Virus record (IMG/VR): IMGVR_UViG_3300013132_000026
Span: 32,001 to 96,000 of that record
Length of the DNA: 64,000 nucleotides
Strand: one strand, 5' to 3'
From: a virus
Every line of letters begins with the position of its first letter. Position 1 is the first letter of the stretch. The position numbers and the translations under genes are program-made. Shown here piece after piece: positions 32,084 to 46,854 of the stretch. A model generated the notes under the pieces. The model searched no databases. It saw nothing but the letters and a program-made list of their open reading frames with translations, and was not told the origin of the DNA.

Positions 32084-34384
32084 ATGAAAAAATCAATGAC
32101 AGTTAAAAAGAGAAGCGGCGACATCGAGAAGTTCGACGCTGACAAGATTAATAAAGTTTTACAATGGGCTTGCGACGGCATTTCCGGAACCTCGTTCGAG
32201 GAGGTCGGGATGAACGCCAACGTAGCTTTCTTTGACGGTATCTCGTCCAAAGACATTCACAATACGCTAATCGAAGCTGCTGCGGGGCTAATTTCTGAGG
32301 AAAAACCTCAGTATCAATTTGTTGCGTCTCGCTTACTCAACTATCACCTCCGAAAAGAAGTTTGGGGAGGGAAGAATGCTCCGAAACTGATTGATTTTGT
32401 AAAAGAAAATATTAAATATGGCGTTTACGATCCAGACATTCTTAAGTGGTACGATGATCGCGAGTTCCATAAGTTAGACGAGTTTCTGAAACACGACCGT
32501 GACTTTGACTTCGCTTATGCTGGTATCAAGCAGCTTTGCGACAAGTACCTCGTTCAAAATCGGACAACAAAGAAGATTTACGAGACTCCACAGTTTGCGT
32601 ACATCTTGATCGCTATGACTCTGTTCAGGGGTTATAAGGAGAATCGCCTACAGTACATTAAGAAAGCTTATAGCTACTTTAGCCAGCACAAGATCAATCT
32701 GCCTACCCCAATCATGGCGGGCGTTCGCACGACGCTAAAGAGCTACGCCTCTTGCGCTTTGTTTACCGTAGATGACACGCTAAATTCGATTTTCTCGAAC
32801 AACTCGGCTGTAGGTATGGCTACGGCAAATCGATACGGAATTGGCCTTAATATGAGCCGAATCCGAGCCGTTAATGCGCCCGTTAAGGGCGGCATGGTTA
32901 GTCACACGGGTCCAATCCCATTTTTGAAGATGTTCGAGTCTACCGTAAAGAGTTGCCACCAGAACGGCATTCGCGGCGGCTCTGCTACCGTAAACGTTTC
33001 TTGGTTTCACCACGATATCGAAGATATCCTCGTTCTCAAGAACAATGCGGGTACTGACGATAATCGCGTTCGCAAGCTTGACTATTGCATCGGCTTTGAC
33101 CGCGTATTCTATGATCGCGTCCTAAACAACGAAAAGATCACTCTTTTCTCGTATCACGAAGTTCCCGAGCTTTGGAATCGATTCGGCTTCCCAGACTTTA
33201 AGGATCTTTACCTTGCCGCAGAAAAGAACGCGAAGCTGAAGTTTAAGAAGACGATGAATGCCCGCGATCTCTTTATGCTCTTCTCGAAGGAGCGTGTAGA
33301 GACGGGACGTATCTACGTCATGAACGTTGACCACGCAAACTCGCACGGTTCTTGGCTTGAGCAAGTGGACACTAGCAATCTCTGTACGGAAATAACTCAA
33401 CCATTAATTCCGATTTCAGATCTTAATGATAAAAATGGAGAGATCGGTGTTTGTATTCTCTCTGCCGTTAATCTCCTCAAGGTTGACAAAGACGAGATGG
33501 AACCCGTGTGCGACGTTATTGTTCGAATGCTCGAAGAGCTTATCGACCACCAGAACTATTTTGTTCCTGCCGCAGAGAATTTTGCGAAGCGTCGTCGTAG
33601 CCTCGGCGTTGGCGTCACGAATCTCGCCGCTTACTTGGCCGATCTTGGCGTAAAGTATTACGACAAGGCCGCGCCGAATAAGGCGGCGGCAATCATGGAG
33701 CTTGTCAGCTATAACTTGATCAAGGCGTCCGTTGAACTGGCAAAGGAAAAGGGTGCGTGCGAAAAGTTCGACAAAACAAAGTTCTCGCAAGGTATTCTCC
33801 CTATTGATACTTACTGCAAGAACATCGATGAGTTCGTAACCGAAAAACTTCATTGCGATTGGGAATCGCTGCGCAAAGACATCAAGCAGCACGGTATGCG
33901 CCACAGCACGCTCACTGCGATCATGCCCGTAGAGTCGAGTTCCGTTATTCAGTCATCGACAAACGGCATCGAGCCACCACGCTCGCTGATTTCGCAGAAG
34001 CGTTCAAAAGCTGGCATTATCCCAGTTGTCGTTCCTAATATCCGTTCGAAGAAGAACGACTACACGCTCGCATTTGAAATGCCAAATAACCACGGCTATC
34101 TTAAGGTTGTCGCGGCGCTTCAGAAGTTCACCGACATGAGCATCTCGACCAACTTGTACTATAACGTTAATCGTTATCCGAACAAGATTCCGAATCAAAC
34201 GGAACTGCTCGGAGACATTATGATCGCTTACAAGTACGGAATTAAGAACCTTTATTACACAAATACATTTGACGGCGACACACAAACCGTCTTAGATTCA
34301 ACTCCTAACCCAACCAAAGAACCCGCAAAGCAGCCAGAAACCGAAGAGGCCGATGGCTGCGCTGGTGGGGCTTGCACGCTGTAA
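32084..34384 (+). CDS. nrdA: Ribonucleotide reductase class Ia alpha subunit with ATP cone
   Basis: VKKRSG cone, ETPQ, PTP, SC, RGGSA, SNLCTEI, MPVESSS and TNGIEP motifs; C-terminal CAGGACTL. Confidence 0.97.
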   Translation: MKKSMTVKKRSGDIEKFDADKINKVLQWACDGISGTSFEEVGMNANVAFFDGISSKDIHNTLIEAAAGLISEEKPQYQFVASRLLNYHLRKEVWGGKNAPKLIDFVKENIKYGVYDPDILKWYDDREFHKLDEFLKHDRDFDFAYAGIKQLCDKYLVQNRTTKKIYETPQFAYILIAMTLFRGYKENRLQYIKKAYSYFSQHKINLPTPIMAGVRTTLKSYASCALFTVDDTLNSIFSNNSAVGMATANRYGIGLNMSRIRAVNAPVKGGMVSHTGPIPFLKMFESTVKSCHQNGIRGGSATVNVSWFHHDIEDILVLKNNAGTDDNRVRKLDYCIGFDRVFYDRVLNNEKITLFSYHEVPELWNRFGFPDFKDLYLAAEKNAKLKFKKTMNARDLFMLFSKERVETGRIYVMNVDHANSHGSWLEQVDTSNLCTEITQPLIPISDLNDKNGEIGVCILSAVNLLKVDKDEMEPVCDVIVRMLEELIDHQNYFVPAAENFAKRRRSLGVGVTNLAAYLADLGVKYYDKAAPNKAAAIMELVSYNLIKASVELAKEKGACEKFDKTKFSQGILPIDTYCKNIDEFVTEKLHCDWESLRKDIKQHGMRHSTLTAIMPVESSSVIQSSTNGIEPPRSLISQKRSKAGIIPVVVPNIRSKKNDYTLAFEMPNNHGYLKVVAALQKFTDMSISTNLYYNVNRYPNKIPNQTELLGDIMIAYKYGIKNLYYTNTFDGDTQTVLDSTPNPTKEPAKQPETEEADGCAGGACTL

Positions 34385-34388
34385 TAAA

Positions 34389-35444
34389 ATGAAAACTGTA
34401 CTCAACACAATTAATCTCGACTCGTTAAAGCAGCCGCTTTTCCTTGGAGAAGACTTGGCTATTCAACGGTACGACCGTTTGAAGTACCCGAAGTTTTACG
34501 AGCTTTACGACCAGCAGATCAACTTCTTTTGGCGACCCCAAGAGATCAATCTCACAAAAGATGCCGCCGATTACAAGACTCTCTCACCAGAAGAGCGTTT
34601 TGTTTTCGATAGCAATCTTCGCTTCCAGACGATGACCGACTCGATGCTTAGTCGCAGCATCAACTCGCTGTCCGATTATGTTTCGAACCCAGAGCTAGAA
34701 ATCTGCATGAACGTTTGGTCGTTCTTCGAGACTGTACATAGCAATAGCTATACATACATTCTCCAGAATGTTCACCCCGACGCGACCAAGTTCTTCGACT
34801 CGATTCTCGAAGACAAGGAGATCGTGAAGCGTGCTCAAGCCATCTCTAGCCGCTACGATGCTTTGCTTAACACGCGAAGCACCGATCCTAAGCAGCAGAT
34901 TCTCGATGCCCTTATCGCTACACAAATTACCGAAGGCTTAACGTTCTACGTTTCGTTCGCGTGCTCGTTCTACTTTGGCTATCGCGGAAAGATGGAAGGC
35001 AACGCAAAAATTATTAATTTAATTTCTCGCGACGAGAACCTTCACGTTGCTATCACGCAAAATATCATTAAGATCTTGCGCGATCACCCGAGCGAAGGCT
35101 TCCAAGAGCTTCTCAAGAAGAACGAAGATCGAATCTACGAGGCTTACAGAATGGCAGTGGACGCAGAAAAGGAATGGGCCGATTATCTGTTCTCTAAGGG
35201 AAGCTTGATCGGTTTGACTGCCGACTCGTTGAAGCAATACGTTGAGTGGCTCGCGGATAACCGCTTGACATCAATGGGTTACAATAAAATTTATAACGCT
35301 AAGTCCAACCCACTCTCTGGCTGGCTTAATAGCTTCTACGACTCCAAGAAGGTTCAGGTTGCCCCGCAAGAAACGGAAATCTCGTCCTACGTTAAAGGCG
35401 TAGATAACAAGATTGACGAATCCGTCTTCGATATTAAGTTTTAA
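34389..35444 (+). CDS. nrdB: Ribonucleotide reductase class Ia beta subunit
   Basis: FWRPQEI, ETVHSNSY, EGLTFYVSF, RDENLH and APQETEISSY motifs. Confidence 0.97.
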   Translation: MKTVLNTINLDSLKQPLFLGEDLAIQRYDRLKYPKFYELYDQQINFFWRPQEINLTKDAADYKTLSPEERFVFDSNLRFQTMTDSMLSRSINSLSDYVSNPELEICMNVWSFFETVHSNSYTYILQNVHPDATKFFDSILEDKEIVKRAQAISSRYDALLNTRSTDPKQQILDALIATQITEGLTFYVSFACSFYFGYRGKMEGNAKIINLISRDENLHVAITQNIIKILRDHPSEGFQELLKKNEDRIYEAYRMAVDAEKEWADYLFSKGSLIGLTADSLKQYVEWLADNRLTSMGYNKIYNAKSNPLSGWLNSFYDSKKVQVAPQETEISSYVKGVDNKIDESVFDIKF

Positions 35445-38400
35445 GTGTCGAGGTAGAGAGTATCGGCGTTCAGATCGACCCAACCTTTCGGCGTAAACTC
35501 AAGAACTACTTGTTCATTTGGTTTTACGACCGTTAAGGTTGGGGATTCTGCCGCTTCGCCACCGTCTCTATAAACAACGTAAACATCAGCAGCCTTACCG
35601 AACGCTGGCTTGTTTACGAACGTTACAGTATAACCAATTGGCGGATTCGATGGAATTTCAACCGTTGAATCGCTGATTGGCGTAACAATCTTAGTGTCAT
35701 TCAGATCGTCTGGAGATAGCGTCAAATCAATCGTGCTTTCTAGCACAACGTAGCCTCCGCTGCCAGTTATTGTTTGACCGTTGTAAACGAACACAACGCC
35801 AGCTAGTCCAGACTTTGCGCCGATAGTCGTCCAGTTAACGGTTCCTTGAACCGTGATCTTGTAGCTCCTATTAACCATCAAGTTCGAGCCTGTGGCTTCG
35901 ATTTGTGGTCTTTCTGCTGCATTTACTGGTGCAGGAGGACGCTTGCCATCAAGAATGTATTCGGTATAGGTAACTGCTGGTGGCTCGTCGGCTCTATCTT
36001 CCAGATAGCCGCTAACAACTGGGGACATTACGCCAGTGCCAAAGTCGTCTCTCGGCAGGAACTTGAAGTAGTACCATTGCTCGCGTTGAATCGTTGGCCC
36101 GCCAAGCTCAATAAGGTTCAAGTAAGAGCGGCTTGGGATAGGATAGATAGCGTGCAAGTTACTTCTCGTATCTGTGTCTGGAGTAAATGCTTCAGAACTA
36201 CCAGTATAAATGTCTACCGAAAGAACGTCTTTGTTCGAAGATGCTGAGTAACAATAGAATTTAATCGCATTATAAGACACGCGATCTTGAACGACGGAAA
36301 CTGCAACGCCCGAGAAGCCAGTTTGGTTTGCGTTAGTGATGTCGGCAAAATCGGCAGTACCCAAAATATTACCCTTTGTTCTTGGAAGAGTTCTCGCCTC
36401 TTCATAACCGTAAGTTTCCCAATGCTCTCTTCCCCAAGCGTCTTTTGTCTTTGTGCCGCCTTGCAATACTTCCGACTCATAAGCGTTCAGCAAATCGGGC
36501 CACTCGTTGACATAAGCTTCGTAGCTAGGATCGCCAAGACCAGAGTAGTTAATGTCGATACCATTTAGAGTAGCAACGCCAGCAGAGCTTAATCCTGTTG
36601 CAGACTTGAATGCTCCAGAGATATCTCTGAACGTGATTTCACGATCAGCATTCTCGCTTCTTAACAGATCTCCAGCACTTGCGCCAGCAGACCAATCTCT
36701 AATACCCGAGCCGCTAACGATATTGTTTTCCCCACTATTCCAAACTGCGACTCTTGTGAACGAAGAGTTCCCGTAGTAGCCCGAGAAAACATAATAGGGC
36801 GAGAACTGATAAGAGTCTACTACGTCAATTTGAGAGTATGCTGGAGCAACATTGTAAGCGTCGAAAGTTCCTGTAAATGGATTATTATTTACGTCTCTTA
36901 CGACGACTCTTAGTCTATAGTTTCTTTGCGCAGGAGAATCGGTAGTCTTGATGTCTGCCGTTGTGCCGCGCATCGAGTATTCTTGATTTTTCTCTTTTGT
37001 TAGCGTATACGAGAAGCCTTGATAGCCAGTATTGGATTCTAGTAAAGTTCCACCATCAGAGTATAGTTGAACAACGATATTCGGAGCGTCTGGGAAGAAC
37101 GGATTGTTTCTGAGAGAATCTGGTGAATTGATTCTGTCGCCAACGGGATCAACGTAAGACCAGCGGAACGTCAAATCTTTTGACGTGAAGTTCCCTTGCC
37201 CAACTCCCGAGAATGTTGCTCCGTAAGTAATGTTGTATCGCAAGCTTCCAGTATCCGCTGTATCAAGGTAGAAACCAGTGATCGCGACTCTATCTAACGA
37301 TGTGCCGCCAATTGTTGCGGTGGACAATGGAAGAGCGACTGCGCTTATTGATGCTGAGTCTTCGGACAAGAATCGATACGGCGTAGCTCCTTGAGCGTAG
37401 ATATCGATATCGTACTGTCCCCAGTTTGAGTTAACTGGAATCGTGTAGTCGAGAGAAGACGTTGATACGGCTTCAGTAATTGCTCCCGGTACTGAACTTG
37501 AGTAGTCTGGGCGGCTAATATAAAGCTTATAAAGTGGCGGCGAACTTGGAGAAGCTCCCCAGTTAACATAAATGCCAGTTGTGACGTTCGATTCATCTTT
37601 ACGCAAAGTAGTTGTAACGGGCGTAGTTGGAGCCTGTGGCTTTACTACAAGGTCGTAAGGAGATTGAACGTAAAGGTTTGGCGAAGTGTCCGAGATGTCA
37701 TTCTCGATAAAGTTTTCTTTATCTGGATAAAACTCGACGCCAGCTACCGAATAGTTATTCGCCTCTTCTTCTTTAACTGTTAGAGTCTTGTAAAGCTTTG
37801 GCTCAACACCAGAACCGCTCAACAGATAAATCGACCCATCTTCAATAAGATTAATCTTTGTTGGCAAGGTATCTACAGCTAGCGAATAGAAGCCTTTGCC
37901 ATAGCCAGTTCCATAAACCAATCCGCTATAGCCAACACCATCAGTTTCGCTGAGAGTTCTGATATCTGACTGTCCGAGGGTTCCGCCTCCAACATAAACA
38001 CTCAGCCCAAGCGCAGCAAACGCACCAGAAACGTGTGCGCTTGTTAAACTTGTCGTGATCGGAATCTTCGTGGAGCCATAGAAATCCTTGGGGAAACCAA
38101 TGGTTCTGTGGTCGTTAATTGTTCCGGCAATCCAGTACTTTGTCTCATCCGTAGCGAACGTTGCTGAAGACGTGTGGCCAGCCTTACAGCGGTAAATAAC
38201 GCCAGAAACATTTACGATCTTATCTATATCATAATAAACGCTCGCTCTCCAGTCGTCATACTTAGAATTCGAACTGTTTCCAACATCAACATTTAAGAAA
38301 GTATAGTACGGAGTCATCTTGCTTAAAGCTAGAAGATCTCTGTAATTGAATCTAATCTTGCCAAAGTCATTGAGCGATTTTGATGCTCGCTCGACAATTC

Positions 38401-41146
38401 TTCCCGCTCCAGATGAAACTTTAACAAGAGCCGCTAAATAACCGAAAGAAGTTGAAACTGCCGAGACATCTTTGCCGATCTTCTGAACTTCTGTTGGAGC
38501 ATAGGCCGCGAGTTCAGAAGGAGTTGCTGCATTATTTGCAACAGCTGCATTGTTAGACACAATGATAACAACGTTGCCCGCAGTGCTCGCGGTTATATGC
38601 GCAGCCGCAGTAGCTAACGAGGACGACGTTGACGTTTGATTCACAAATGCTCCAGCAGTAGTTAACTGGATCGCAGTGAAAAATCCATTAGCTGCCGCTG
38701 TCCCAACTTGTGACCCATTGACCGTCACGGTTCCGTTCGTGCCGTCAACAGCACAAGACCAATTTGTTTCGTCGCCGATTAATTGTCCCGTTCCCGCCGA
38801 GCCTTGAACGTCAATATCAATTTCATTTTCGAGCAACACACCAGAAACCGCTGCGAAGTTTAATGTTTCAAAACGAGGATTTCCCGTTACAGTCGTGTTG
38901 TCTGGGAAAACATAAACCTCTCCTGTCAAAATAGTATCGCCAGTTGTTACGCCACCACCAGAAATTCTTCCTTCGATTGGGTACGTTTCAAAGATGCCAG
39001 ATTTGAGCAAGAACTCGCCAGTGATTGTGATTCTCGATCCGTAAGTGTTACTACCGTCAACACCGTCAGCTACCGTATGAATGTTGTATCTCTGTAATTG
39101 ACGCTGGCGTCTCGCTCTAATATTGTTGAGCGTGCCAGTAAATTGACCAGCAGAACCAGTTAAGTTATTAAGATCCGATACCGAATAATTCCCAGAAGGG
39201 ACGTGGATATAAATACCCGAGTCAAGTCCGATAGTCGATGCAGTTCCTTGCTTAAACTCGCCATCGATAGTGACGACATTAGTCGCTTCGTTAACATCTA
39301 AGATGCGCCCAAATGTTCTTGCAGTGTTCTTAACTTCGTCGCTGACCGAGAAGATATCGCCCGGTTGCAGGAACGCAGCCTCAACGCCGCCAACGAACGA
39401 CACGATGTCAGACTCGAACATCGAAGAACACAAGACGTAGCGTCCAATTCTGCGAGCCTCTGAGCGTGAAGTGCAACCAGCAGCGTTGATTTTAAATGGA
39501 TTTAAGCCGAACTTACGAATGCCGTCAACATCTTCAATATACTCTACCTTGGTTTTGTAACCATCATACTTATCGTTATAAACGACTTCTACGGAAGTAT
39601 ATCTGACGTTTCGCGCCGTTTCGCTATACTCGAAAAGACCGTCTCGAACATTTGCATTCGAGAACTGCATAACAGGATCTTGTGGTCTATCGGCGTAAAA
39701 AGAGAAACCTTCCGTGTTCCAGTAAACGATGCCCTTAAATACGGCTGAGACATCGCGCAATACATTGTAAGCCTCGTCTTTATTGTAGAAGATGATGTTG
39801 TATGTGTAGCGTGGCTCTAAGCCACCTTTGCCGTCTGGAACGCCTCGAAAAATACCCTTATCATCTACAGCGTCACAATACCTACCGATATCGTAAAGCG
39901 TCCACTTGTCGAGTGACGAAAAGTCGATTTGGTTGCCCAAACCATAATTCGTATTCGTGATGATATCGTAAAGAACCCAAGCTGGATTATCGGTCCAGCC
40001 TAACTTGAACGTGCCATCCCAATCACCGTAGTAAACCTTGTTGCTATCGTAAAACTTATCGTCACAGAACTGCTGAAAATCGATATCAGAGTCGTGGAGC
40101 ATATTGAACGCACCACCATTTACTTTTGCCGAAAGTTCTCGGAATGTTCTAGTTCCAGAAGACGAAGCGTTGCTGTAGAAATAATAAAGCTGAACGCAGT
40201 TTTCAGTCGAGTATCTGAACAGAGCATCGTAAGTCGATTCGGTCATCGACTCTGGACTTGCTCCTCCGAAGAAAACAACTTTTCTTACCGTGTTCGACCA
40301 AAGAGAGTCAACAACAACCGATTCAAGCTCTTTGCCCATTTCGCGATTCGATGCGTAGAGATTCTTTCTGATTAAATATGAAACTGCTCCGACTTCACTA
40401 TAAGCGGCAGAGACGGTGCTTTCTTGCAGTAGCGTATCGAGCTTAGTAAAAAGATTTTGATTGTTTTCTCCAGCAGAATCTGGCGAGCGAACAGTTATGA
40501 ACGATTCCGAATCGTAATATGAGAAGTTCGTTAGCGTTGGGCCATTGATGACGCTATAGCTGACGCTGCTATCCACTTTCCAAATTGCTGCCCTTACCGC
40601 AGTATAACCAGCGGTCATCTTCGCAATCATTTCTTTTAAATTCCGACGAATCAAAGCCTTATTCGCAAATGTCATATTCTTGTCTACGACAAAAATAATA
40701 TCTAGATTATTTGGATTAGCCGGATAGTTTGCGCTTGGGTAAACATAACGACGGTCAAGACCGTTTCCGCCCAATGGATAGTAATTGGACGGGATCTTAA
40801 TCTTCTTCATTCGCACGTCGAATGCGCGTTCTGGAAAATTCGCAAAGGTTCGCGAATCAAACTTTACTCCAACGTGAGCTGTTAGCGGATAAGAGAAATT
40901 GCGATCAATAACTTCTGTGATACTATCTACATAAACTTCGCGCCTAACGAGCGGAGAAATAGTTTCTTCGCTGCGCTTTTCAATCTTGATGTAGCGATCT
41001 TTGCCATTTACTGATTCTGGTAAAACGATTTCATCAACTCCTTCAGATACATTCGTTGAATCAACTGACTTTTGAAAAGCCGTTTGGTTCGCGTCGATTG
41101 GATCTTCCGCTCCTCTTAAGAATCTAAATGGATTTAACATTTTCAT
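35441..41146 (-). CDS. Tail-tip protein gpJ, C-terminal part, with VWA, lectin-like and FN3 inserts
   Basis: ITEVID..SYPLTAHVGVKFDS, IPSNY, WDGTFK.GWTDNPAW, LYDIGRYCD, EPRY, F.NANV.DG.F.Y and GCTSRSEARR match lambda gpJ. Confidence 0.9.
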   Translation of the reverse strand: MKMLNPFRFLRGAEDPIDANQTAFQKSVDSTNVSEGVDEIVLPESVNGKDRYIKIEKRSEETISPLVRREVYVDSITEVIDRNFSYPLTAHVGVKFDSRTFANFPERAFDVRMKKIKIPSNYYPLGGNGLDRRYVYPSANYPANPNNLDIIFVVDKNMTFANKALIRRNLKEMIAKMTAGYTAVRAAIWKVDSSVSYSVINGPTLTNFSYYDSESFITVRSPDSAGENNQNLFTKLDTLLQESTVSAAYSEVGAVSYLIRKNLYASNREMGKELESVVVDSLWSNTVRKVVFFGGASPESMTESTYDALFRYSTENCVQLYYFYSNASSSGTRTFRELSAKVNGGAFNMLHDSDIDFQQFCDDKFYDSNKVYYGDWDGTFKLGWTDNPAWVLYDIITNTNYGLGNQIDFSSLDKWTLYDIGRYCDAVDDKGIFRGVPDGKGGLEPRYTYNIIFYNKDEAYNVLRDVSAVFKGIVYWNTEGFSFYADRPQDPVMQFSNANVRDGLFEYSETARNVRYTSVEVVYNDKYDGYKTKVEYIEDVDGIRKFGLNPFKINAAGCTSRSEARRIGRYVLCSSMFESDIVSFVGGVEAAFLQPGDIFSVSDEVKNTARTFGRILDVNEATNVVTIDGEFKQGTASTIGLDSGIYIHVPSGNYSVSDLNNLTGSAGQFTGTLNNIRARRQRQLQRYNIHTVADGVDGSNTYGSRITITGEFLLKSGIFETYPIEGRISGGGVTTGDTILTGEVYVFPDNTTVTGNPRFETLNFAAVSGVLLENEIDIDVQGSAGTGQLIGDETNWSCAVDGTNGTVTVNGSQVGTAAANGFFTAIQLTTAGAFVNQTSTSSSLATAAAHITASTAGNVVIIVSNNAAVANNAATPSELAAYAPTEVQKIGKDVSAVSTSFGYLAALVKVSSGAGRIVERASKSLNDFGKIRFNYRDLLALSKMTPYYTFLNVDVGNSSNSKYDDWRASVYYDIDKIVNVSGVIYRCKAGHTSSATFATDETKYWIAGTINDHRTIGFPKDFYGSTKIPITTSLTSAHVSGAFAALGLSVYVGGGTLGQSDIRTLSETDGVGYSGLVYGTGYGKGFYSLAVDTLPTKINLIEDGSIYLLSGSGVEPKLYKTLTVKEEEANNYSVAGVEFYPDKENFIENDISDTSPNLYVQSPYDLVVKPQAPTTPVTTTLRKDESNVTTGIYVNWGASPSSPPLYKLYISRPDYSSSVPGAITEAVSTSSLDYTIPVNSNWGQYDIDIYAQGATPYRFLSEDSASISAVALPLSTATIGGTSLDRVAITGFYLDTADTGSLRYNITYGATFSGVGQGNFTSKDLTFRWSYVDPVGDRINSPDSLRNNPFFPDAPNIVVQLYSDGGTLLESNTGYQGFSYTLTKEKNQEYSMRGTTADIKTTDSPAQRNYRLRVVVRDVNNNPFTGTFDAYNVAPAYSQIDVVDSYQFSPYYVFSGYYGNSSFTRVAVWNSGENNIVSGSGIRDWSAGASAGDLLRSENADREITFRDISGAFKSATGLSSAGVATLNGIDINYSGLGDPSYEAYVNEWPDLLNAYESEVLQGGTKTKDAWGREHWETYGYEEARTLPRTKGNILGTADFADITNANQTGFSGVAVSVVQDRVSYNAIKFYCYSASSNKDVLSVDIYTGSSEAFTPDTDTRSNLHAIYPIPSRSYLNLIELGGPTIQREQWYYFKFLPRDDFGTGVMSPVVSGYLEDRADEPPAVTYTEYILDGKRPPAPVNAAERPQIEATGSNLMVNRSYKITVQGTVNWTTIGAKSGLAGVVFVYNGQTITGSGGYVVLESTIDLTLSPDDLNDTKIVTPISDSTVEIPSNPPIGYTVTFVNKPAFGKAADVYVVYRDGGEAAESPTLTVVKPNEQVVLEFTPKGWVDLNADTLYLDT

Positions 41147-41162
41147 CTACTAGTAAATATTA

Positions 41163-41696
41163 TTATGTAATCGAGAATGTTCTAACCCCATCTGTGCCAC
41201 CAGTTAACTTTGTTAAGCCCTTTGGCGATTGGGCGTTGATATAAACAGTATGTGTTCCCGTAGCGAGCTTCGAAGTCACATCGGCTGGGATCGTAAATGA
41301 AAACACTCCCGTAGTGGTGTTAATGTCTGTGCCGTTTGCGTAAATGACTTGTGGCGTATTCCCATTACTAGCTGGACTATCTATATGAGCCGCCAAGGAT
41401 AATGTTGGAGTAAGAATTGTGGTAGCTCCAAGAGTCCTGTTGAACGTTGCCGTTCCGGTCAGTGTGATAGTGGCTCCCTTAGCGTAACTTGAACTAGAAA
41501 GAGCATCAAAAGTAGCGGCTGTTCCCGCACCCTCTCCAACCAAAGTATAAACATAGTTTTGTACCGTAGTGTATGGATTTGAAAATGGCGACGTTGAAAG
41601 CTTTTTTAAATAATAGATAACCCCCAAAACCGTCGAATAGTTCCGTTTATTGATTTTCGTCGCCGCTAACTGTTCTGGAGTATATTGAATAGACAT
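41163..41696 (-). CDS. Ig-like-domain protein between the two gpJ parts
   Basis: T/G-rich; GVFSFTIPA...LATGTHTVYINA Ig-like motif. Confidence 0.65.
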   Translation of the reverse strand: MSIQYTPEQLAATKINKRNYSTVLGVIYYLKKLSTSPFSNPYTTVQNYVYTLVGEGAGTAATFDALSSSSYAKGATITLTGTATFNRTLGATTILTPTLSLAAHIDSPASNGNTPQVIYANGTDINTTTGVFSFTIPADVTSKLATGTHTVYINAQSPKGLTKLTGGTDGVRTFSIT

Positions 41697-41708
41697 TTTT
41701 TATGGGAC

Positions 41709-42551
41709 TTAAAAGCCGGGAGGAAGCGTCTTTTTAAAGTCGTCGTTCAAGTCAATTGGTGGAATATTTACTCTTGTGCTGGCTCCACCAACCGACGAAG
41801 CGGGATTGAAATTGGTATTTGTTGCCGCGTAGTAAGCACCATCAGTGGTTTCGCCTTCTGAAATCGAGTCGTCGCCGATAGTATATGCATACGGGCTTTG
41901 AACCAATCCGTAGAAACTAACATCTCTAATTTGTAAATTAGACTCTCCATCCAATCCCCAGTATAAACGCAAGAGAAGCGTCGATTCTTTGGCTGTTCCA
42001 GCTTTTGTTCCCTCATCTACAGTATCCGCCAAAGCTTCAATTAAAAAGTTTACACGAAGCTTTTTGACATCGCGGTTTCTGATTTGATGAGTAAATATGA
42101 ATGGGTCTTGTGGTGTCGTCGGCCAACCATCGGTTGAACGCGCCCAGCTTGTAAAGTTTCTGCCATCTAACTTAACGTCGTCCTGCATCGTGATCGGGCC
42201 GAGCAGTTTAAAGCTTGCTGGTTTAGAGATGTAAACGTTTTTAAAGTTGACTAAAGCTTTTTGTTTCTCTGTACCAAAGTTTACTTCGAGGAGAATGTTT
42301 CTGTAATTGTATTCTCCACTAACGTTCATAACTGGAACGCCATTCAAATAAACTCCCTTTAGCATATCTAGGCCATAAACTTTTTTGCCAAACGGATCGA
42401 CAATACCTTCGATTGGACCCTCGCAAAGCAAGTCAACGATTTCTGCCACAGAAATAGACTTCTTGAGTTTCTTGCCCTCGTCTGGCGGCAGAAGTTTAGC
42501 CTCGGATGTTCCCATCCCTCTGAAAAATCTTAATGGATTTAGAATTTTCAT
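41709..42551 (-). CDS. Tail-tip protein gpJ, N-terminal part
   Basis: AEIVDLLCEGPIEGIV...VYLNGVPV...GTEKQ matches the gpJ N-terminus; start at ATG 42551. Confidence 0.85.
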   Translation of the reverse strand: MKILNPLRFFRGMGTSEAKLLPPDEGKKLKKSISVAEIVDLLCEGPIEGIVDPFGKKVYGLDMLKGVYLNGVPVMNVSGEYNYRNILLEVNFGTEKQKALVNFKNVYISKPASFKLLGPITMQDDVKLDGRNFTSWARSTDGWPTTPQDPFIFTHQIRNRDVKKLRVNFLIEALADTVDEGTKAGTAKESTLLLRLYWGLDGESNLQIRDVSFYGLVQSPYAYTIGDDSISEGETTDGAYYAATNTNFNPASSVGGASTRVNIPPIDLNDDFKKTLPPGF

Positions 42552-42552
42552 C

Positions 42553-45519
42553 TTAGAATATAGATGGGAGTGACTGAATCGGAGGAACGCTTCTCTCGAT
42601 GCTTTCGTTTTGCGTTGACAAGAAAGTAACGCCAACACGAATTGTCGGAGACAAATACTTATTCACTCCCTTTGTAATCTCACACTGCCAGAAAGAAACA
42701 TACTTAGCGTAGCCTGTGTCTTCACGTTCCGAAGTGAACGTCACTAGTCTTTGGCTGTCTGCTTGAACTGCCGCAAGATCGATAACTTCAGAAGCGAATG
42801 CTCCTGTGCCGGAAAATGCTGTAGAGTTCTTTAAGAACACTGTGCCAACTGTTGCCGACGTTGCGCCAACACTAGTCCAATTAGCTGCCGTGCCGACAAC
42901 ATTGATTCTGTACTTCTTGCCAGCGACCATTGAAGATGCGGCGATATCTCCGCGTTGTGTATAGATCGGAGAATTTGGAGCGATCAAATTAGAATCGGTC
43001 TTGCGGTTGAGAAGCTGATTTTCTCCAACCACAGTGAACGAAGCCGCGCCAGTCTTTCTGTAAGAAATCTTAATCTTGTTTCTGCCGACACCAGTTCTAA
43101 GTCTGGCGTAAATTCTATGATATCCGCTCGTTAGCGTAACGGGCGAAACTGTTGGAGACGAGTCTACGTCGTGACTCGACGCTAAGATTCCGTTAACGTA
43201 CAAATCGGCAAAAGCGTCGTTTGTTTCGAGACATTCGATCTTAAAGTCGTAAGAATTTACTGGCGCGACCTTTCCGTTTCCAGTTGCAGCAGTCGCGTTC
43301 TTTGTAAACGTCATGCCAACAACAGGAGGAACCGAGCCAACGCCAATCGTTGACCACTGAGCGGAAGTGCCAACTTTTGTAATCTCGTAAACAGTGCCGC
43401 TATTCGCTGAAATAACGCTAATTTCTCTCACAGCTAGCGGATCGGTCGAGATGATGTCGGTGTTCTTGTTTAATGGGATATAGAAGTAGCCCAAAAATTC
43501 GAGCGTGTAGTTGCCGACATCAGAAGCGTTACTGTTGATCTCTGAAATATTTACTGCCGAGAAGTCGCCAGTATAGAGGTTTTGATTGATTGGCAACTTG
43601 ACATAACTCAAATAAGTGTCGAAAGTGCCAGACGCTGTTGGAATAGTTTCCGCTGTCCAGAAAGAGCTGTCAGTAGGCAACTTGCCCTGAGCATTAGACG
43701 TTGCGCGGTAAATTTGCTCTCTGATCGGTGGGATAAATAGTGACCAGAAATTATTCACTCCGCTAGTAAACAATTTTACAACGGCGCTGATTTTTGTTTG
43801 ATCTAGGATATCGGCGCTTTCTGCAACTACCGTGTAAGTTTCGGAACCGCTAGGCGATCCGCTCAACGTATAAGTAAAGGTCGTGTCGCTCGTTGTTGTG
43901 ATCGTGTACGTTCCGTTAGGATCTACTGCGCCAGTCAAGTTTGCAATCTGCGCCGAAGTTCCCGTGATTTCCGAAAGAACAATCGGATTGAAAGGAGTGG
44001 CCGAGTTTCCAAGAGTGATCGTCACTACCGCATTGCTGCGAGTTGCGCTTGCAATATACGACTTAGCGAGTGGAGGGTGCGTGTTTAACACCGCTCTACC
44101 AGCGGTTACTGTATAAGTTTCCGTTCCCGTATCCAAAGTAGCTAATGTGTAAGTGAATTGATTTGCGGCAGTTACGGTAATATTGTAGTAGCCGTTTGCA
44201 TCAACATTGCCAGTGCTCAGTCCAGAGATCGTCGCTTTGAAGTTGCTTGCGAAATTATGATTCGAAGAAGTCGTAATGGTTACGGTTGCTCCAGATCGAC
44301 TCGCCGCCGAGATAGTTGCGTCGGCGGGAATACTCGTTGTGCATCTAAAGAAAATGCTACTTAACGTAACAATTTCTCCGCTAACGTATCGAGTGTTATT
44401 GTCCCAAGCCGATTTTGGCAACGCCTCGAATTGCGATGGCCCCCAAATAACCAAAGAGTTAGTCGGGTATAAAATCATGTAATTCGAATCGGTGCGGTTT
44501 TGCGCAGCGTTCGAAATTAATTGAAACTCTTGCGGGCGAGCGAAACGATAGAGCGCACCTTCAGAAAACGAGTAAGAATTTTCCTGCTGAATCGCGCTCT
44601 TTGTCGAATCTGAAGAAGACAATTGCTTCCATTTGTACGTCAAATCTTCATTGTACGTTGACAGATTTGGGTTCGAAATAATCTCACCGTCTTGCTTTAC
44701 TCGAAGCTCAACGATGTTAGACGAAACTTTTTTAGCGGACTTCGTAACGATATCAATGTACGACTGCGAGAGAGAAACATCGACAACTGAAACCGCATCT
44801 TCGAATACGGCAGTTTGATTCGAACGATACCCGTCGATTTCAAGTTCATCAATACCTTCGTAAGCTGGGATAGCGTCAATCGGCCTTGAAGTTGGCGTCA
44901 TCAAAGCCTTCACATCGTAATTTAAACGATAATTATTGATCGAGGCGCTGATTTGCGAGCTGCCGATGATTAGTCTGCCATAGCCAACTGGAACGGCTTG
45001 ACCTTGAGAAGTGTTGCTCGGCTTGCTTCCGAAAAGATAAGACTTGCCGCCCGCAGAAACTTCTTGATTAAAGTCAGGTTTGGGCGTTGGGAATAATAAT
45101 CCCATGACGCCCTGCGTCAATAATGCAGCACCAACAAGTATACCGGCTTTCGCAGCAGTTCCACTGAGAATTGCTAAACCACCAGCAGCACCGAATCCGC
45201 CCGAGATTGTGATAAGCGCAACAGCCGCGACAATCAAAAGAATATTCTTTACGCTATCTCCAGCGCCCCACACCACAGGAACCAAATGAATTTCTTGTGG
45301 CGTTTTAATGATGTCGAGTTCGAGAGGATCTTCGATAACTTGATCATCAACAACGATTCTGTAAAATACACCTTTCGCCGCCAGCTTCTTTAACGCGGCC
45401 AAAAAGCCGCGACGATTTGCATTGATCGCAGTAAACGCTTCTCTTGGTTTCGAAATGTTGTATCGAAACTCATGACCAAACAAGTTGCGTAGTTCGCCGT
45501 ATAGATAAATGTTAGTCAT
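42553..45519 (-). CDS. Tail assembly protein gpI-like (ubiquitin-like N-domain) with large C-terminal extension
   Basis: IYLYGELRNLFG...EIHLVPVVWGAG, hydrophobic stretch, SYLF...QGQAVPVGYGRLIIGS. Confidence 0.85.
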   Translation of the reverse strand: MTNIYLYGELRNLFGHEFRYNISKPREAFTAINANRRGFLAALKKLAAKGVFYRIVVDDQVIEDPLELDIIKTPQEIHLVPVVWGAGDSVKNILLIVAAVALITISGGFGAAGGLAILSGTAAKAGILVGAALLTQGVMGLLFPTPKPDFNQEVSAGGKSYLFGSKPSNTSQGQAVPVGYGRLIIGSSQISASINNYRLNYDVKALMTPTSRPIDAIPAYEGIDELEIDGYRSNQTAVFEDAVSVVDVSLSQSYIDIVTKSAKKVSSNIVELRVKQDGEIISNPNLSTYNEDLTYKWKQLSSSDSTKSAIQQENSYSFSEGALYRFARPQEFQLISNAAQNRTDSNYMILYPTNSLVIWGPSQFEALPKSAWDNNTRYVSGEIVTLSSIFFRCTTSIPADATISAASRSGATVTITTSSNHNFASNFKATISGLSTGNVDANGYYNITVTAANQFTYTLATLDTGTETYTVTAGRAVLNTHPPLAKSYIASATRSNAVVTITLGNSATPFNPIVLSEITGTSAQIANLTGAVDPNGTYTITTTSDTTFTYTLSGSPSGSETYTVVAESADILDQTKISAVVKLFTSGVNNFWSLFIPPIREQIYRATSNAQGKLPTDSSFWTAETIPTASGTFDTYLSYVKLPINQNLYTGDFSAVNISEINSNASDVGNYTLEFLGYFYIPLNKNTDIISTDPLAVREISVISANSGTVYEITKVGTSAQWSTIGVGSVPPVVGMTFTKNATAATGNGKVAPVNSYDFKIECLETNDAFADLYVNGILASSHDVDSSPTVSPVTLTSGYHRIYARLRTGVGRNKIKISYRKTGAASFTVVGENQLLNRKTDSNLIAPNSPIYTQRGDIAASSMVAGKKYRINVVGTAANWTSVGATSATVGTVFLKNSTAFSGTGAFASEVIDLAAVQADSQRLVTFTSEREDTGYAKYVSFWQCEITKGVNKYLSPTIRVGVTFLSTQNESIERSVPPIQSLPSIF

Positions 45520-45874
45520 AACGTTTCTTTAACATATCAACGTATTCTTTCTTAACGTGCGATACCTTGGGCATCACCAAGTTGAATTCTTGAGTCTGCT
45601 TGCTGTAAATAAGATAAGGAATGCAAGAATTGTCGCAATTGAACTGGTCGAACTTCGACTCGTCTTCGCCCGTCTTTGGGTGCGAGTGATAGATCGCAAC
45701 AAGATTACCCGAACGAATCTTCTTCAAGATTTCGAGCGGATGAATCTCAAATATATTATCGGCGTAAGTGGCAATGTTCTTCGCTGGCTCAGTTTTCAGT
45801 TCGCCGTTCTCAACGGTTACGAATCCGCAAACTTCCAAATCGGACGATAAAGCGTGTTCAACGATTGTAGTCAT
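45512..45874 (-). CDS. gpK-like JAB/MPN metalloprotease, stand-alone (no NlpC/P60 domain)
   Basis: EVCGFV...AIYHSHP...ESKFD JAMM motif; lies between L and I. Confidence 0.85.
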   Translation of the reverse strand: MTTIVEHALSSDLEVCGFVTVENGELKTEPAKNIATYADNIFEIHPLEILKKIRSGNLVAIYHSHPKTGEDESKFDQFNCDNSCIPYLIYSKQTQEFNLVMPKVSHVKKEYVDMLKKRYD

Positions 45875-46854
45875 TACTGATTAAAATTGATCGGGTACTC
45901 CTCGGTTCCCGGAAACCCACCGAACGGTAATTCTGCATTTTCACCAAAGCGCAGCTTGCAGCCGCCGATAGACTTTGAGCACTGATCTGCCATCCAGAAC
46001 TCTTTATTGATAGATGGATTTTTGCCTGCGGTAGCAGTATGAGCCTTAACGCAAATATAGAACTTTTGAAGCGGTTTCCAGTTTGGGTTCGCGTTGATAT
46101 TCTCTTCCGAGACTTTTACATTCGTGTTTTCAACGTAAACGTAGTCGGCTATCGAGTAGCTTGTGCCGGGCGTCCAGCGTCCTTTATTCACTTTGGTTGC
46201 TAAAGACGTTGACGTGCCAGCTTCAATATTGATAGCATTCTCGAACAATTGATTATTATCGTCAGCTACTGGAGGACCATTGAATCCGCATCCGTTGCCG
46301 CGATAATGAAACGAACAGTAACGCGACATTACGATACGCTTCGGGAACGTGACGCTATCGAGTTCAAGAGGCGAAGCGAGTTCAAGCTCAACGATTGCCC
46401 GATTTTCGGACGAACGGCGCAGAACGAAAAAGACTTGATCTTCTAGCCCAGCAGTTGCATCTGCGGCACCGTATGGATTCTTCGAGTCCGAAAAGTTAAC
46501 GTTGTCCAAGAACTTAAGGAACGTTCTCTTACGGACAACTTTTGCGCCAATAAGGTTGTTATAACGGCGAATAAGGTTCGAAACAAAGAAGTCTTGGTTC
46601 GAAATAGTTAGTTTCGGGCGCGGAAGCGAGCCGTCACCCTTGGTCTCGAAGCCTGAGCTTTGGATCGGAAATGGCAAATACTCCTGACCTTGCCAGTAGA
46701 TCGAACCGTTTATCCCATTTGTGCCGCCATGAATGTAAAGTTGTTGGTCAGGTTGATTAACGTAGTCGTAATAAATAACAAAAAACTCCAAAAGAGCCGT
46801 TGGCTCTAGTGAAAAAAGCTCCGCATTGACTTTCTGGTTAGACTCCCTTGACAT
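45874..46854 (-). CDS. Minor tail protein gpL
   Basis: WQGQEYLPFPI..GFE...PRPKLT, GAKVVRKRTF.KFLD, C...YRG.GC, DQCSK...C.LRF and FGGFPG motifs. Confidence 0.9.
   Translation of the reverse strand: MSRESNQKVNAELFSLEPTALLEFFVIYYDYVNQPDQQLYIHGGTNGINGSIYWQGQEYLPFPIQSSGFETKGDGSLPRPKLTISNQDFFVSNLIRRYNNLIGAKVVRKRTFLKFLDNVNFSDSKNPYGAADATAGLEDQVFFVLRRSSENRAIVELELASPLELDSVTFPKRIVMSRYCSFHYRGNGCGFNGPPVADDNNQLFENAINIEAGTSTSLATKVNKGRWTPGTSYSIADYVYVENTNVKVSEENINANPNWKPLQKFYICVKAHTATAGKNPSINKEFWMADQCSKSIGGCKLRFGENAELPFGGFPGTEEYPINFNQ

Follow-up and report, generated by a model that had tools for sequence, protein, structure and literature searches.

Why would the two fragments of a split tail-tip protein begin with almost the same 12-residue peptide, in an operon that also encodes a JAB metalloprotease and a protein with a ubiquitin-like domain? 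This question is raised by the tail-tip genes in a 64,000-nt stretch of viral DNA (hereafter, the window), which is part of a 127-kb virus record estimated to be 88% complete; the sequencing runs that contain the window are labeled as lake-water or freshwater metagenomes, and none of those listed is an RNA run. On its minus strand, the gene order is gpL, gpK, gpI, J-N, a 177-aa open reading frame (ORF), and J-C, where J-N and J-C are the N- and C-terminal fragments of J, the hub/central-fiber protein. In our analysis, the peptide (the leader) appears to be a native N-terminal module of J in a large family of uncultured lambda-like siphophages, and the answer that we favor, with somewhat less than even confidence, is that it is a pro-peptide removed by gpK, the JAB protease. 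The features on which the argument draws are the following.

45874..46854, minus strand: gpL homolog, 326 aa (PF05100 Phage_tail_L, 2e-54; phrog_18)
45512..45874, minus strand: gpK, 120 aa, a JAB/MPN+ domain alone (PF14464 Prok-JAB, 28.7 bits against a cut-off of 25)
42553..45519, minus strand: long gpI, 988 aa (phrog_32, 1.1e-35, residues 1-195)
45265..45519, minus strand: predicted ubiquitin-like (TAPI-type) domain at the N-terminus of gpI; it ends VPVVWG85, then AG; aligns with lambda I 14-96
41709..42551, minus strand: J-N, the N-terminal J fragment, 280 aa (phrog_1727, phrog_31)
42516..42551, minus strand: leader 1 on J-N, MKILNPLRFFRG, read from the translation
41163..41696, minus strand: 177-aa ORF between the J fragments, no family; conserved in most related loci
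35441..41146, minus strand: J-C, the C-terminal J fragment, 1901 aa (PF13550 Phage-tail_3, 4.6e-18; phrog_31, 4e-112)
41111..41146, minus strand: leader 2 on J-C, MKMLNPFRFLRG, followed by an acidic, variable linker

The leader as a conserved N-terminal peptide of J

The two leaders, MKILNPLRFFRG on J-N and MKMLNPFRFLRG on J-C, are identical at 9 of 12 residues and at 30 of 35 nucleotides (five single-base differences, counted by hand), and the similarity stops after the Gly, where J-N continues with MGTSEAK... and J-C with AEDPIDA...; on both points, we agree with a sequence-only reading of the window that preceded this work. Together, the copies amount to a direct repeat of 35 nt on either side of J-N and the middle gene. 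A degenerate leader pattern matches the 127-kb record at these two sites only, with zero matches for the reversed control pattern, and looser peptide patterns applied to both strands of the window again find just these two sites. In-frame stop codons lie directly upstream of leader 2. At position 41138, contigs from runs X4, X5, and X8 have G in place of C, such that codon 3 of leader 2 encodes Ile, as it does in locus L007; because contigs of three other runs read MKI, the MKM start of leader 2 in the window is a local variant.

That the split or the repeat is an artifact of assembly is a negligible prospect. The same architecture is found on 59 related viral contigs with 46-93% identity from many samples, and contigs from three other lake or freshwater studies bridge the gene starts. 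The sequence-only reading had advised a check of read support across both junctions. At the level of contigs, both are bridged: contigs of runs X4, X5, and X8 span the J-C start, those of X5 and X8 also span the J-N start, and no joints are reported at either.

Within this clade, the leader is nearly universal on J-N. A protein search with J-N yielded 146 homologs of 154-490 aa, and the leader, with the consensus MKILNxxRFx[KR]G, is present in 111 of the 120 homologs listed and at the start of J-N in 58 of the 59 related loci. The nine listed homologs without it consist of seven sequences that are this phage's closest relatives and two that are truncated. In P0001-P0004 and P0006-P0008, gene callers start J-N at the Met just after the Gly, thereby dropping the leader; a Met at +1 after the leader Gly is kept throughout that closest-relative subclade, in which internal initiation at this residue may yield a leaderless J-N. 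Across 23 aligned J-N sequences with a mean column identity of 50%, eight of the 12 leader positions never vary (M1, K2, I3, L4, N5, R8, F9, and G12), and the leader is followed by a Gly/Ser/Pro/Lys-rich linker of variable length and then by a conserved hub strand. An AlphaFold2 (AF2) model of J-N made with the 23 sequences has a mean pLDDT (predicted local distance difference test score) of 39.5, too low to place the leader in the structure.

The leader is likely to be translated, because 88 of the 111 leader-bearing J-N homologs lack any Met for 30 residues after it and many loci have stop codons a few codons upstream of it. A fusion of gpI to J by frameshifting or read-through was considered and rejected, as the J-N frame is closed within 0-41 codons upstream of the ATG and this stretch is unconserved.

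An alternative source of conservation is the mRNA: an A/U-rich, unstructured start (ATG AAA ATT TTA AAT...) could aid initiation or translational coupling and have been reused at J-C. Consistent with this, codons 2-5 are A/T-rich and drawn from a narrow choice (AAA in 28/31, TTA in 27/31, AAT in 26/31), no Shine-Dalgarno sequence is obvious by eye upstream of either the J-N or the J-C start, and the J-N start is coupled to the gpI stop. We nonetheless consider it improbable that the conservation is mainly of this kind. R8, F9, and G12 are fixed as residues while their codons vary (TTT/TTC for the Phe; GGA/GGT/GGG/GGC for the Gly), and in locus L022, the J-N and J-C leaders are identical as protein and differ by five synonymous bases. 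The unit also ends exactly at the Gly, ahead of a disordered linker, and unsplit relatives keep both its length (Gly12) and its residue pattern with other nucleotides. Because leader codons vary synonymously (I3 is ATA or ATT, N5 is AAT or AAC, F9 is TTT or TTC, and G12 uses all four Gly codons), selection appears to act on the leader as a peptide.

The unsplit relatives also bear on the age of the leader. A search of 1.84 billion representatives with the J-N profile found 515 proteins, and we examined 146 newly listed ones, of which 119 reach 800 aa or more; close to the N-terminus, 112 of the 119 show the DLxxEGPI strand. Among the matches listed, 69 of these 112 unsplit J proteins begin with a peptide that we term MKH-type, with the consensus M-K-H-[LFI]-x-K-K-x-x-[LIF]-x-G. 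The first Gly in a Gly-[AGSKLF] pair falls at position 12 in 41 of the 69, and the residue after the leader Gly is Ala, Gly, or Ser in 67 of the 69. On 77 further viral contigs, we observe 57 unsplit J starts, of which 36 are MKH-type, with the first Gly of a Gly-[AGSKHM] pair at position 12 in 32 of the 57. Shorter versions are found on other unsplit J proteins (e.g., MSQLIIGAGGGG...), while a few J proteins start at the Gly-rich segment itself, such as P0158 (MGAGKK...) and lambda J (MGKGSSKG...). As most unsplit J proteins of the wider family have analogous leaders, the leader does not appear to be a product of the split; judged from these comparisons, it predates the split and is the clade's version of a widespread N-terminal J peptide.

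Searches by tblastn with J-N and with P0147, an unsplit, leader-bearing J, recovered the conserved parts of J from lambdoid and other phages and no cultured phage with a leader, and megablast, run with 12 kb of operon sequence, matched no cultured phage. Our literature search found, in the portions of papers available to it, neither a description of J as split or as carrying an N-terminal leader nor a test of any gpK substrate.

Three side observations concern the unsplit proteins. His3 of the MKH-type leaders is invariant (41/41 twelve-residue leaders), and this position is Ile in the split-J clade; the ATCUN (amino-terminal copper and nickel) pattern, which binds these two metals, consists of X-X-His on an N-terminus that is free. 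Locus L066:3-9430 has tandem full-length J genes with gpI between them (J-I-J), both with MKH-type leaders. In P0263, a 2029-aa J homolog, the segment ...LIGAGGG is followed by CFHENTPVYTL..., an insertion in the Gly-rich linker that looks intein-like by eye, and J homology resumes at about residue 321.

The split of J and the second leader

The position of the split can be read from lambda J. Homology to J begins at J-N residue 13/14, which corresponds to lambda J residue 1/2, and J-N matches lambda J residues 2-77 in PDB entries 8iyk and 9e7m. The J-N family profile maps to lambda J 10-82 and, weakly (independent E-value, 0.011), to 112-197, while the J-C family profile maps to 179-251 and 254-513. 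Because the two maps meet there, we place the break near lambda J 180-200. In the description of lambda J in PMC10721106 (for this and the other papers given by PMC number, we refer to the portions of the text available to us), residues 72-215 form the Ig-like insertion of the HDII-insertion domain, and by this mapping, the break would fall at the end of that insertion, with J-C probably supplying its last strand. The sequence-only reading had put the break inside the first FN3-like domain, which is roughly the right place; the profile maps give the end of the Ig-like insertion. The new ends are highly variable: in J-N, this applies to the C-terminal ~60 residues, and in J-C, to the ~30 that come directly after the leader.

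In the related loci examined, the genes follow one another as in the window: JAB, a long gpI, J-N, the middle gene, and a J-C of ~1870-2030 aa. The leader on J-C has a much narrower distribution than that on J-N. We observe it in 10 of the 50 loci with a readable J-C start, the window included, whereas the other 40 start directly with the acidic segment (MSDDPN..., MEPNSTDP..., or MDDGYSD...). The carriers form three separate groups on both of our trees (one of J-N without the leader columns and one of J-C residues 1-750, both unrooted and mutually agreeing), and the branches starred on them force at least three changes; on such unrooted trees, three gains are indistinguishable from one origin with losses or exchange. 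Ala comes next after the leader in all six unique leader-bearing J-C sequences, and then Glu (5/6) or, in L007, Gly, a hint that they share an origin or a constraint. Between lineages, the J-C leader is 77% identical, while the following 30 residues are 15% identical. This difference, together with the invariant positions and variable linker of J-N, marks the leader as a discrete unit and fits its description as portable in the sequence-only reading.

The account that this reading gave of the second leader, namely that it was copied onto the C-part when the gene split, is not supported: the split and the middle gene are present in every locus examined, and the leader is on 10 of 50 J-C sequences. 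Nor does every J fragment keep the leader, a point that the reading had proposed to check; relatives with a split J and no second leader, which it had named as evidence against its inference, are in the majority. Because 40 of the 50 relatives have a split J without it, the J-C leader appears to be dispensable for building a split J. A history consistent with the loci compared is that J split once, in the ancestor of the clade, into J-N, the middle gene, and J-C, and that the J-C leader is a secondary feature of three lineages including that of this phage, presumably giving access to the same partner as the leader on J-N.

Absence from most relatives would also be expected if the J-C leader were neutral and functionless, a side product of gene conversion or recombination that involved the two gene starts, and the 35-nt direct repeat around J-N and the middle gene fits such an origin. 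This explanation is, however, very improbable in our assessment. The J-C leader is kept in three diverged lineages, with the invariant positions of J-N, beside a segment that is hypervariable (0.77 versus 0.15 identity); the synonymous divergence in L022 is old and has brought no residue change; and the leader is always placed exactly at the J-C start codon and followed by Ala-Glu/Gly. We infer that it has been kept by selection in the three lineages and would be functional where present.

Several further features of the fragments and their surroundings can be described. Where lambda J passes from residue 251 to 254, J-C has ~250 extra residues; this stretch (window 39950-40850, minus strand; residues ~100-400) has no Pfam match, and by eye, its DIIFVVDKN... 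segment is vWA-like. The J-N homologs P0121-P0124 (512-518 aa) are extended at the C-terminus by PF13385 (LamG-like); an added domain can thus be accommodated at this free end of J-N. The middle gene encodes 176-203 aa in most related loci, with the exception of L022, in which it encodes 350 aa and is accompanied by an extra 129-aa ORF. The label "Ig-like" that the sequence-only reading gave to the 177-aa ORF is unconfirmed: it has no Pfam, PHROG, or Atlas match and nothing below E 0.57 against PDB profiles, and its profile has no similarity to lambda J. At the far end of J-C, two large ORFs on the plus strand (window 32084-35444) converge on it and appear by eye to encode ribonucleotide reductase subunits. 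In the relatives examined, the forward frames downstream of J-C hold spurious opposite-strand ORFs alone, and the real genes are probably on the other strand.

gpK and its candidate substrates

The candidate for a partner of the leader is gpK. Its JAMM zinc-site motif is intact (E14, H63-S-H65-x7-S73-x2-D76), and the motif residues are invariant in 19 homologs. As the sequence-only reading had seen, the protein is reduced to its JAB domain: the family search returns Prok-JAB alone, there is no NlpC/P60 half, and 120 aa is too short for a second domain. A stand-alone JAB is no peculiarity of this phage; in the wider family it is the rule, with 45 of 50 JAB ORFs shorter than 200 aa. Of the 53 loci in which the sequence upstream of J extends for 1500 nt or more, 50 have JAB and gpI there, and the three exceptions are two J-I-J tandems and one locus in which the upstream DNA ends inside a long gpI. 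Two tandem gpI genes lie upstream of J in L105, L106, L108, L109, L111, L120, L152, and L154.

The gpI protein offers a second Gly-ended N-terminus. By BLASTP, it matches lambda I at 4e-11 over residues 1-196, and its ubiquitin-like domain ends, as had been noted before, in VPVVWG85 followed by AG. This end takes the form H[IV][IV]P.xWG followed by AG in 28 unique clade members and, more generally, h-x-G-[AGSQH]-[GA] in 60 of the 65 unique gpI sequences listed (by eye). J leaders end h-x-G-[AGS]-G, and lambda gpI has VAG96 followed by AK. Release of the gpI ubiquitin-like domain by JAB at the C-terminal Gly was predicted by Iyer et al. 2006 (PMC1779556). The extension of this predicted cleavage to the J leaders is new and, as a matter of comparative anatomy, plausible. 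In lambda, gpK is required for tail assembly and absent from virions (PMC10721106, PMC12617516), and the gpI N-domain has never been resolved, with models beginning at residue 101 or 134/135, after Gly96 (PMC11101478, PMC10721106, PMC12617516). The available text of PMC12617516 states no biochemical role for the JAB domain of gpK and gives the location of gpK and the route of gpH cleavage in lambda as unknown.

A third Gly-ended module is found on J itself. In nine J proteins of 1911-2017 aa, the slot of the leader is occupied by an N-terminal module of ~50 aa that ends VP..[SA]G and is followed by GGGKG. Its start resembles that of gpI (MINVKFYGILxKTLGKR), and when this start is aligned by hhalign with the start of the gpI N-domain profile, the E-value is 8.3e-5 with a probability of 61% over 18 columns. 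In the AF2 model of the module, residues 1-50 fold as ββαββ with pLDDT values of 82-89, and the remainder is disordered. Its structural matches include MoaD, Urm1, and SAMP at Z scores of 3.4-4.2, and five of the ten best are to MoaD or Urm1 (Z 3.6-4.2, which is weak). A search of the PHROGs with the first 200 aa of P0133 and P0161, which carry the module, returned J families only; as a single query, P0133 had no match in viral contigs, whereas an alignment query did match. In the phages with this module, JAB and one or two separate gpI genes lie directly upstream of J.

Should the module indeed be ubiquitin-like, tip proteins encoded beside a JAB protein would carry Gly-ended N-terminal modules of three kinds in equivalent slots before a flexible linker, and this equivalence is the best, albeit circumstantial, argument for removal of the leader by gpK. 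In the mechanism that we favor, the leader, carried on a flexible linker that is Gly/Pro/Lys-rich or acidic, would serve as a short recognition peptide tethered outside the fold and as a pro-peptide used during tail-tip assembly. The stand-alone gpK would cut after the invariant Gly12, thereby removing the leader, and gpI would be a further substrate of the same enzyme, cut behind the Gly with which its ubiquitin-like domain ends. The mature N-terminus of J would then be the Gly-rich segment, as at the start of lambda J and of the relatives that begin MGAGKK.... The comparisons show the anatomy of the leaders, their conservation and distribution, and the intact JAB motif; in this mechanism, we infer the translation of the leaders, their binding by JAB, and their cleavage. 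A more doubtful generalization is that gpK removes interchangeable Gly-ended N-terminal modules from several tip subunits, as a ubiquitin-style pro-protein system; its modules would be the ubiquitin-like domain of gpI, the mini ubiquitin-like module of some J proteins, and the 12-residue leader of most. A predicted complex of JAB with J-N residues 1-45, run without controls, scored 0.01 and 0.00, which speaks neither for nor against binding.

Several points weigh against removal by gpK. Known JAMM enzymes have ubiquitin-like folds as their substrates, whereas a peptide of 12 residues is too short to form one. The end of the leader, RFx[KR]G, is unlike the P.xWG of gpI save for the Gly and the small residue that follows. 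For the ~50-aa module, all structural Z scores are below 5, a Foldseek search against the PDB gave nothing at E <= 0.001, and a ubiquitin-like profile hidden Markov model (HMM) scores P0133 and P0161 at E of about 1. Because JAB is present in every informative locus, its co-occurrence with the leader has no JAB-less control and is non-discriminating. The second leader is, as described above, dispensable in 40 of 50 relatives. Lambda has the JAB domain in gpK and no leader on J, which is modeled from residue 1 (PMC12617516). Finally, an invariant Gly and a flexible linker suit an uncleaved docking peptide equally well.

It is indeed quite possible that the leader is such a permanent docking peptide: as a tethered short linear motif, it would attach to a groove of the tip, or to an accessory part, and remain in the virion. 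Candidate partners would be gpL, the long gpI extension, the 177-aa protein, or a side fiber, and the J-C copy would be a second anchor. Docking explains the same conservation and the same tethered anatomy. By the lambda map, the N-termini of J-N and J-C both lie in the HDII-insertion/Ig-like region, such that one site could serve both, and β-strand augmentation is common among the lambda tip proteins, for example between gpI and gpJ (PMC10721106). The split-J clade also has extra parts to attach: in the loci seen, gpI is 834-1029 aa with a split J versus ~190-250 aa with an unsplit J. On the other hand, unsplit MKH-type phages keep the leader though they are without the clade-specific extras, and J proteins that start at the Gly-rich segment without a leader (lambda, P0158) show that the peptide is unneeded for the fold. 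Replacement of the leader by a folded, Gly-ended module of ~50 aa also makes more sense if what occupies the slot is removed than if it is a specific docking strand.

The gpI extension is a puzzle in its own right. Beyond the lambda-I-like residues 1-195, the protein has ~790 further residues (42553-44930, minus strand), in which a match to CBM_5_12 falls below threshold (19.3 bits against a cut-off of 26.2). The puzzle is one of placement, as the C-terminus of lambda gpI sits inside the tip.

If removal of the leader by gpK is correct, gpK would gain defined substrates, its role having been obscure since the lambda assembly pathway was mapped, and a JAMM enzyme would recognize a bare 12-residue tail. 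The occurrence of the leader and the ββαββ module in one slot beside an intact JAB provides concrete candidate substrates and cut sites. If the leader is instead a docking peptide, it is a modest point of annotation. The natural fission of a hub and central-fiber protein within a domain is informative on how tips can be assembled from fragments and on how J is annotated in metagenomes.

Comparison with known systems

Short basic or hydrophobic N-terminal peptides that end in Gly before a small residue are known from prepilin leaders and from the double-glycine leaders of bacteriocins. In type IV prepilins, the Gly at -1 is followed by a hydrophobic helix with Glu at +5. The J leaders fit neither type: what follows them is Gly/Ser/Pro/Lys-rich (J-N) or acidic (J-C) sequence and no hydrophobic segment with Glu at +5, and they lack the spacing of hydrophobic residues found in double-glycine leaders. 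In the operon, neither a prepilin peptidase nor a C39 peptidase was seen; the neighboring protease is a JAMM enzyme.

The multi-gene hubs of other phages provide a parallel for the split. In T5, pb3 corresponds to lambda gpL, gpI, and the N-part of gpJ, and in RcGTA, gp13 and gp15 likewise make up a distributed hub (PMC10721106); the HDII-insertion domain of lambda is shared by gpL and gpJ (PMC10721106). As in these hubs, one hub domain is here rebuilt from separate polypeptides. Beyond them, J has been divided once more, within the Ig-like insertion or where it ends; both new termini carry disordered tails, and a gene has been inserted between the parts.

The TAPK/TAPI pair described by Iyer, Burroughs, and Aravind in 2006 (PMC1779556) consists of a JAB protein adjoining a Gly-ended ubiquitin-like gpI, as is the case here. 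In the portion of that paper available to us, neither a short J leader nor a split J is mentioned. To its candidate substrates, the present loci would add a peptide of 12 residues that has no ubiquitin fold, and another clade would add the ~50-aa ββαββ module of J.

The closest comparison is with the L-K-I-J genes of phage lambda (8IYK), which share the gene order, the gpL family, the JAB domain in K, and a TAPI-type gpI. Both gpI proteins have a Gly-ended N-domain and a hydrophobic, Gly-rich middle, and the J proteins have in common the DLxxEGPIEG N-terminal strand and the Phage-tail_3 core. Unlike in lambda, K is without its NlpC/P60 half, gpI is longer by ~790 residues, and J is encoded by two genes around a 177-aa gene. 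J also bears the 12-residue leader, whereas lambda J begins at the Gly-rich segment. The system is a variant of the lambda-type tip module.

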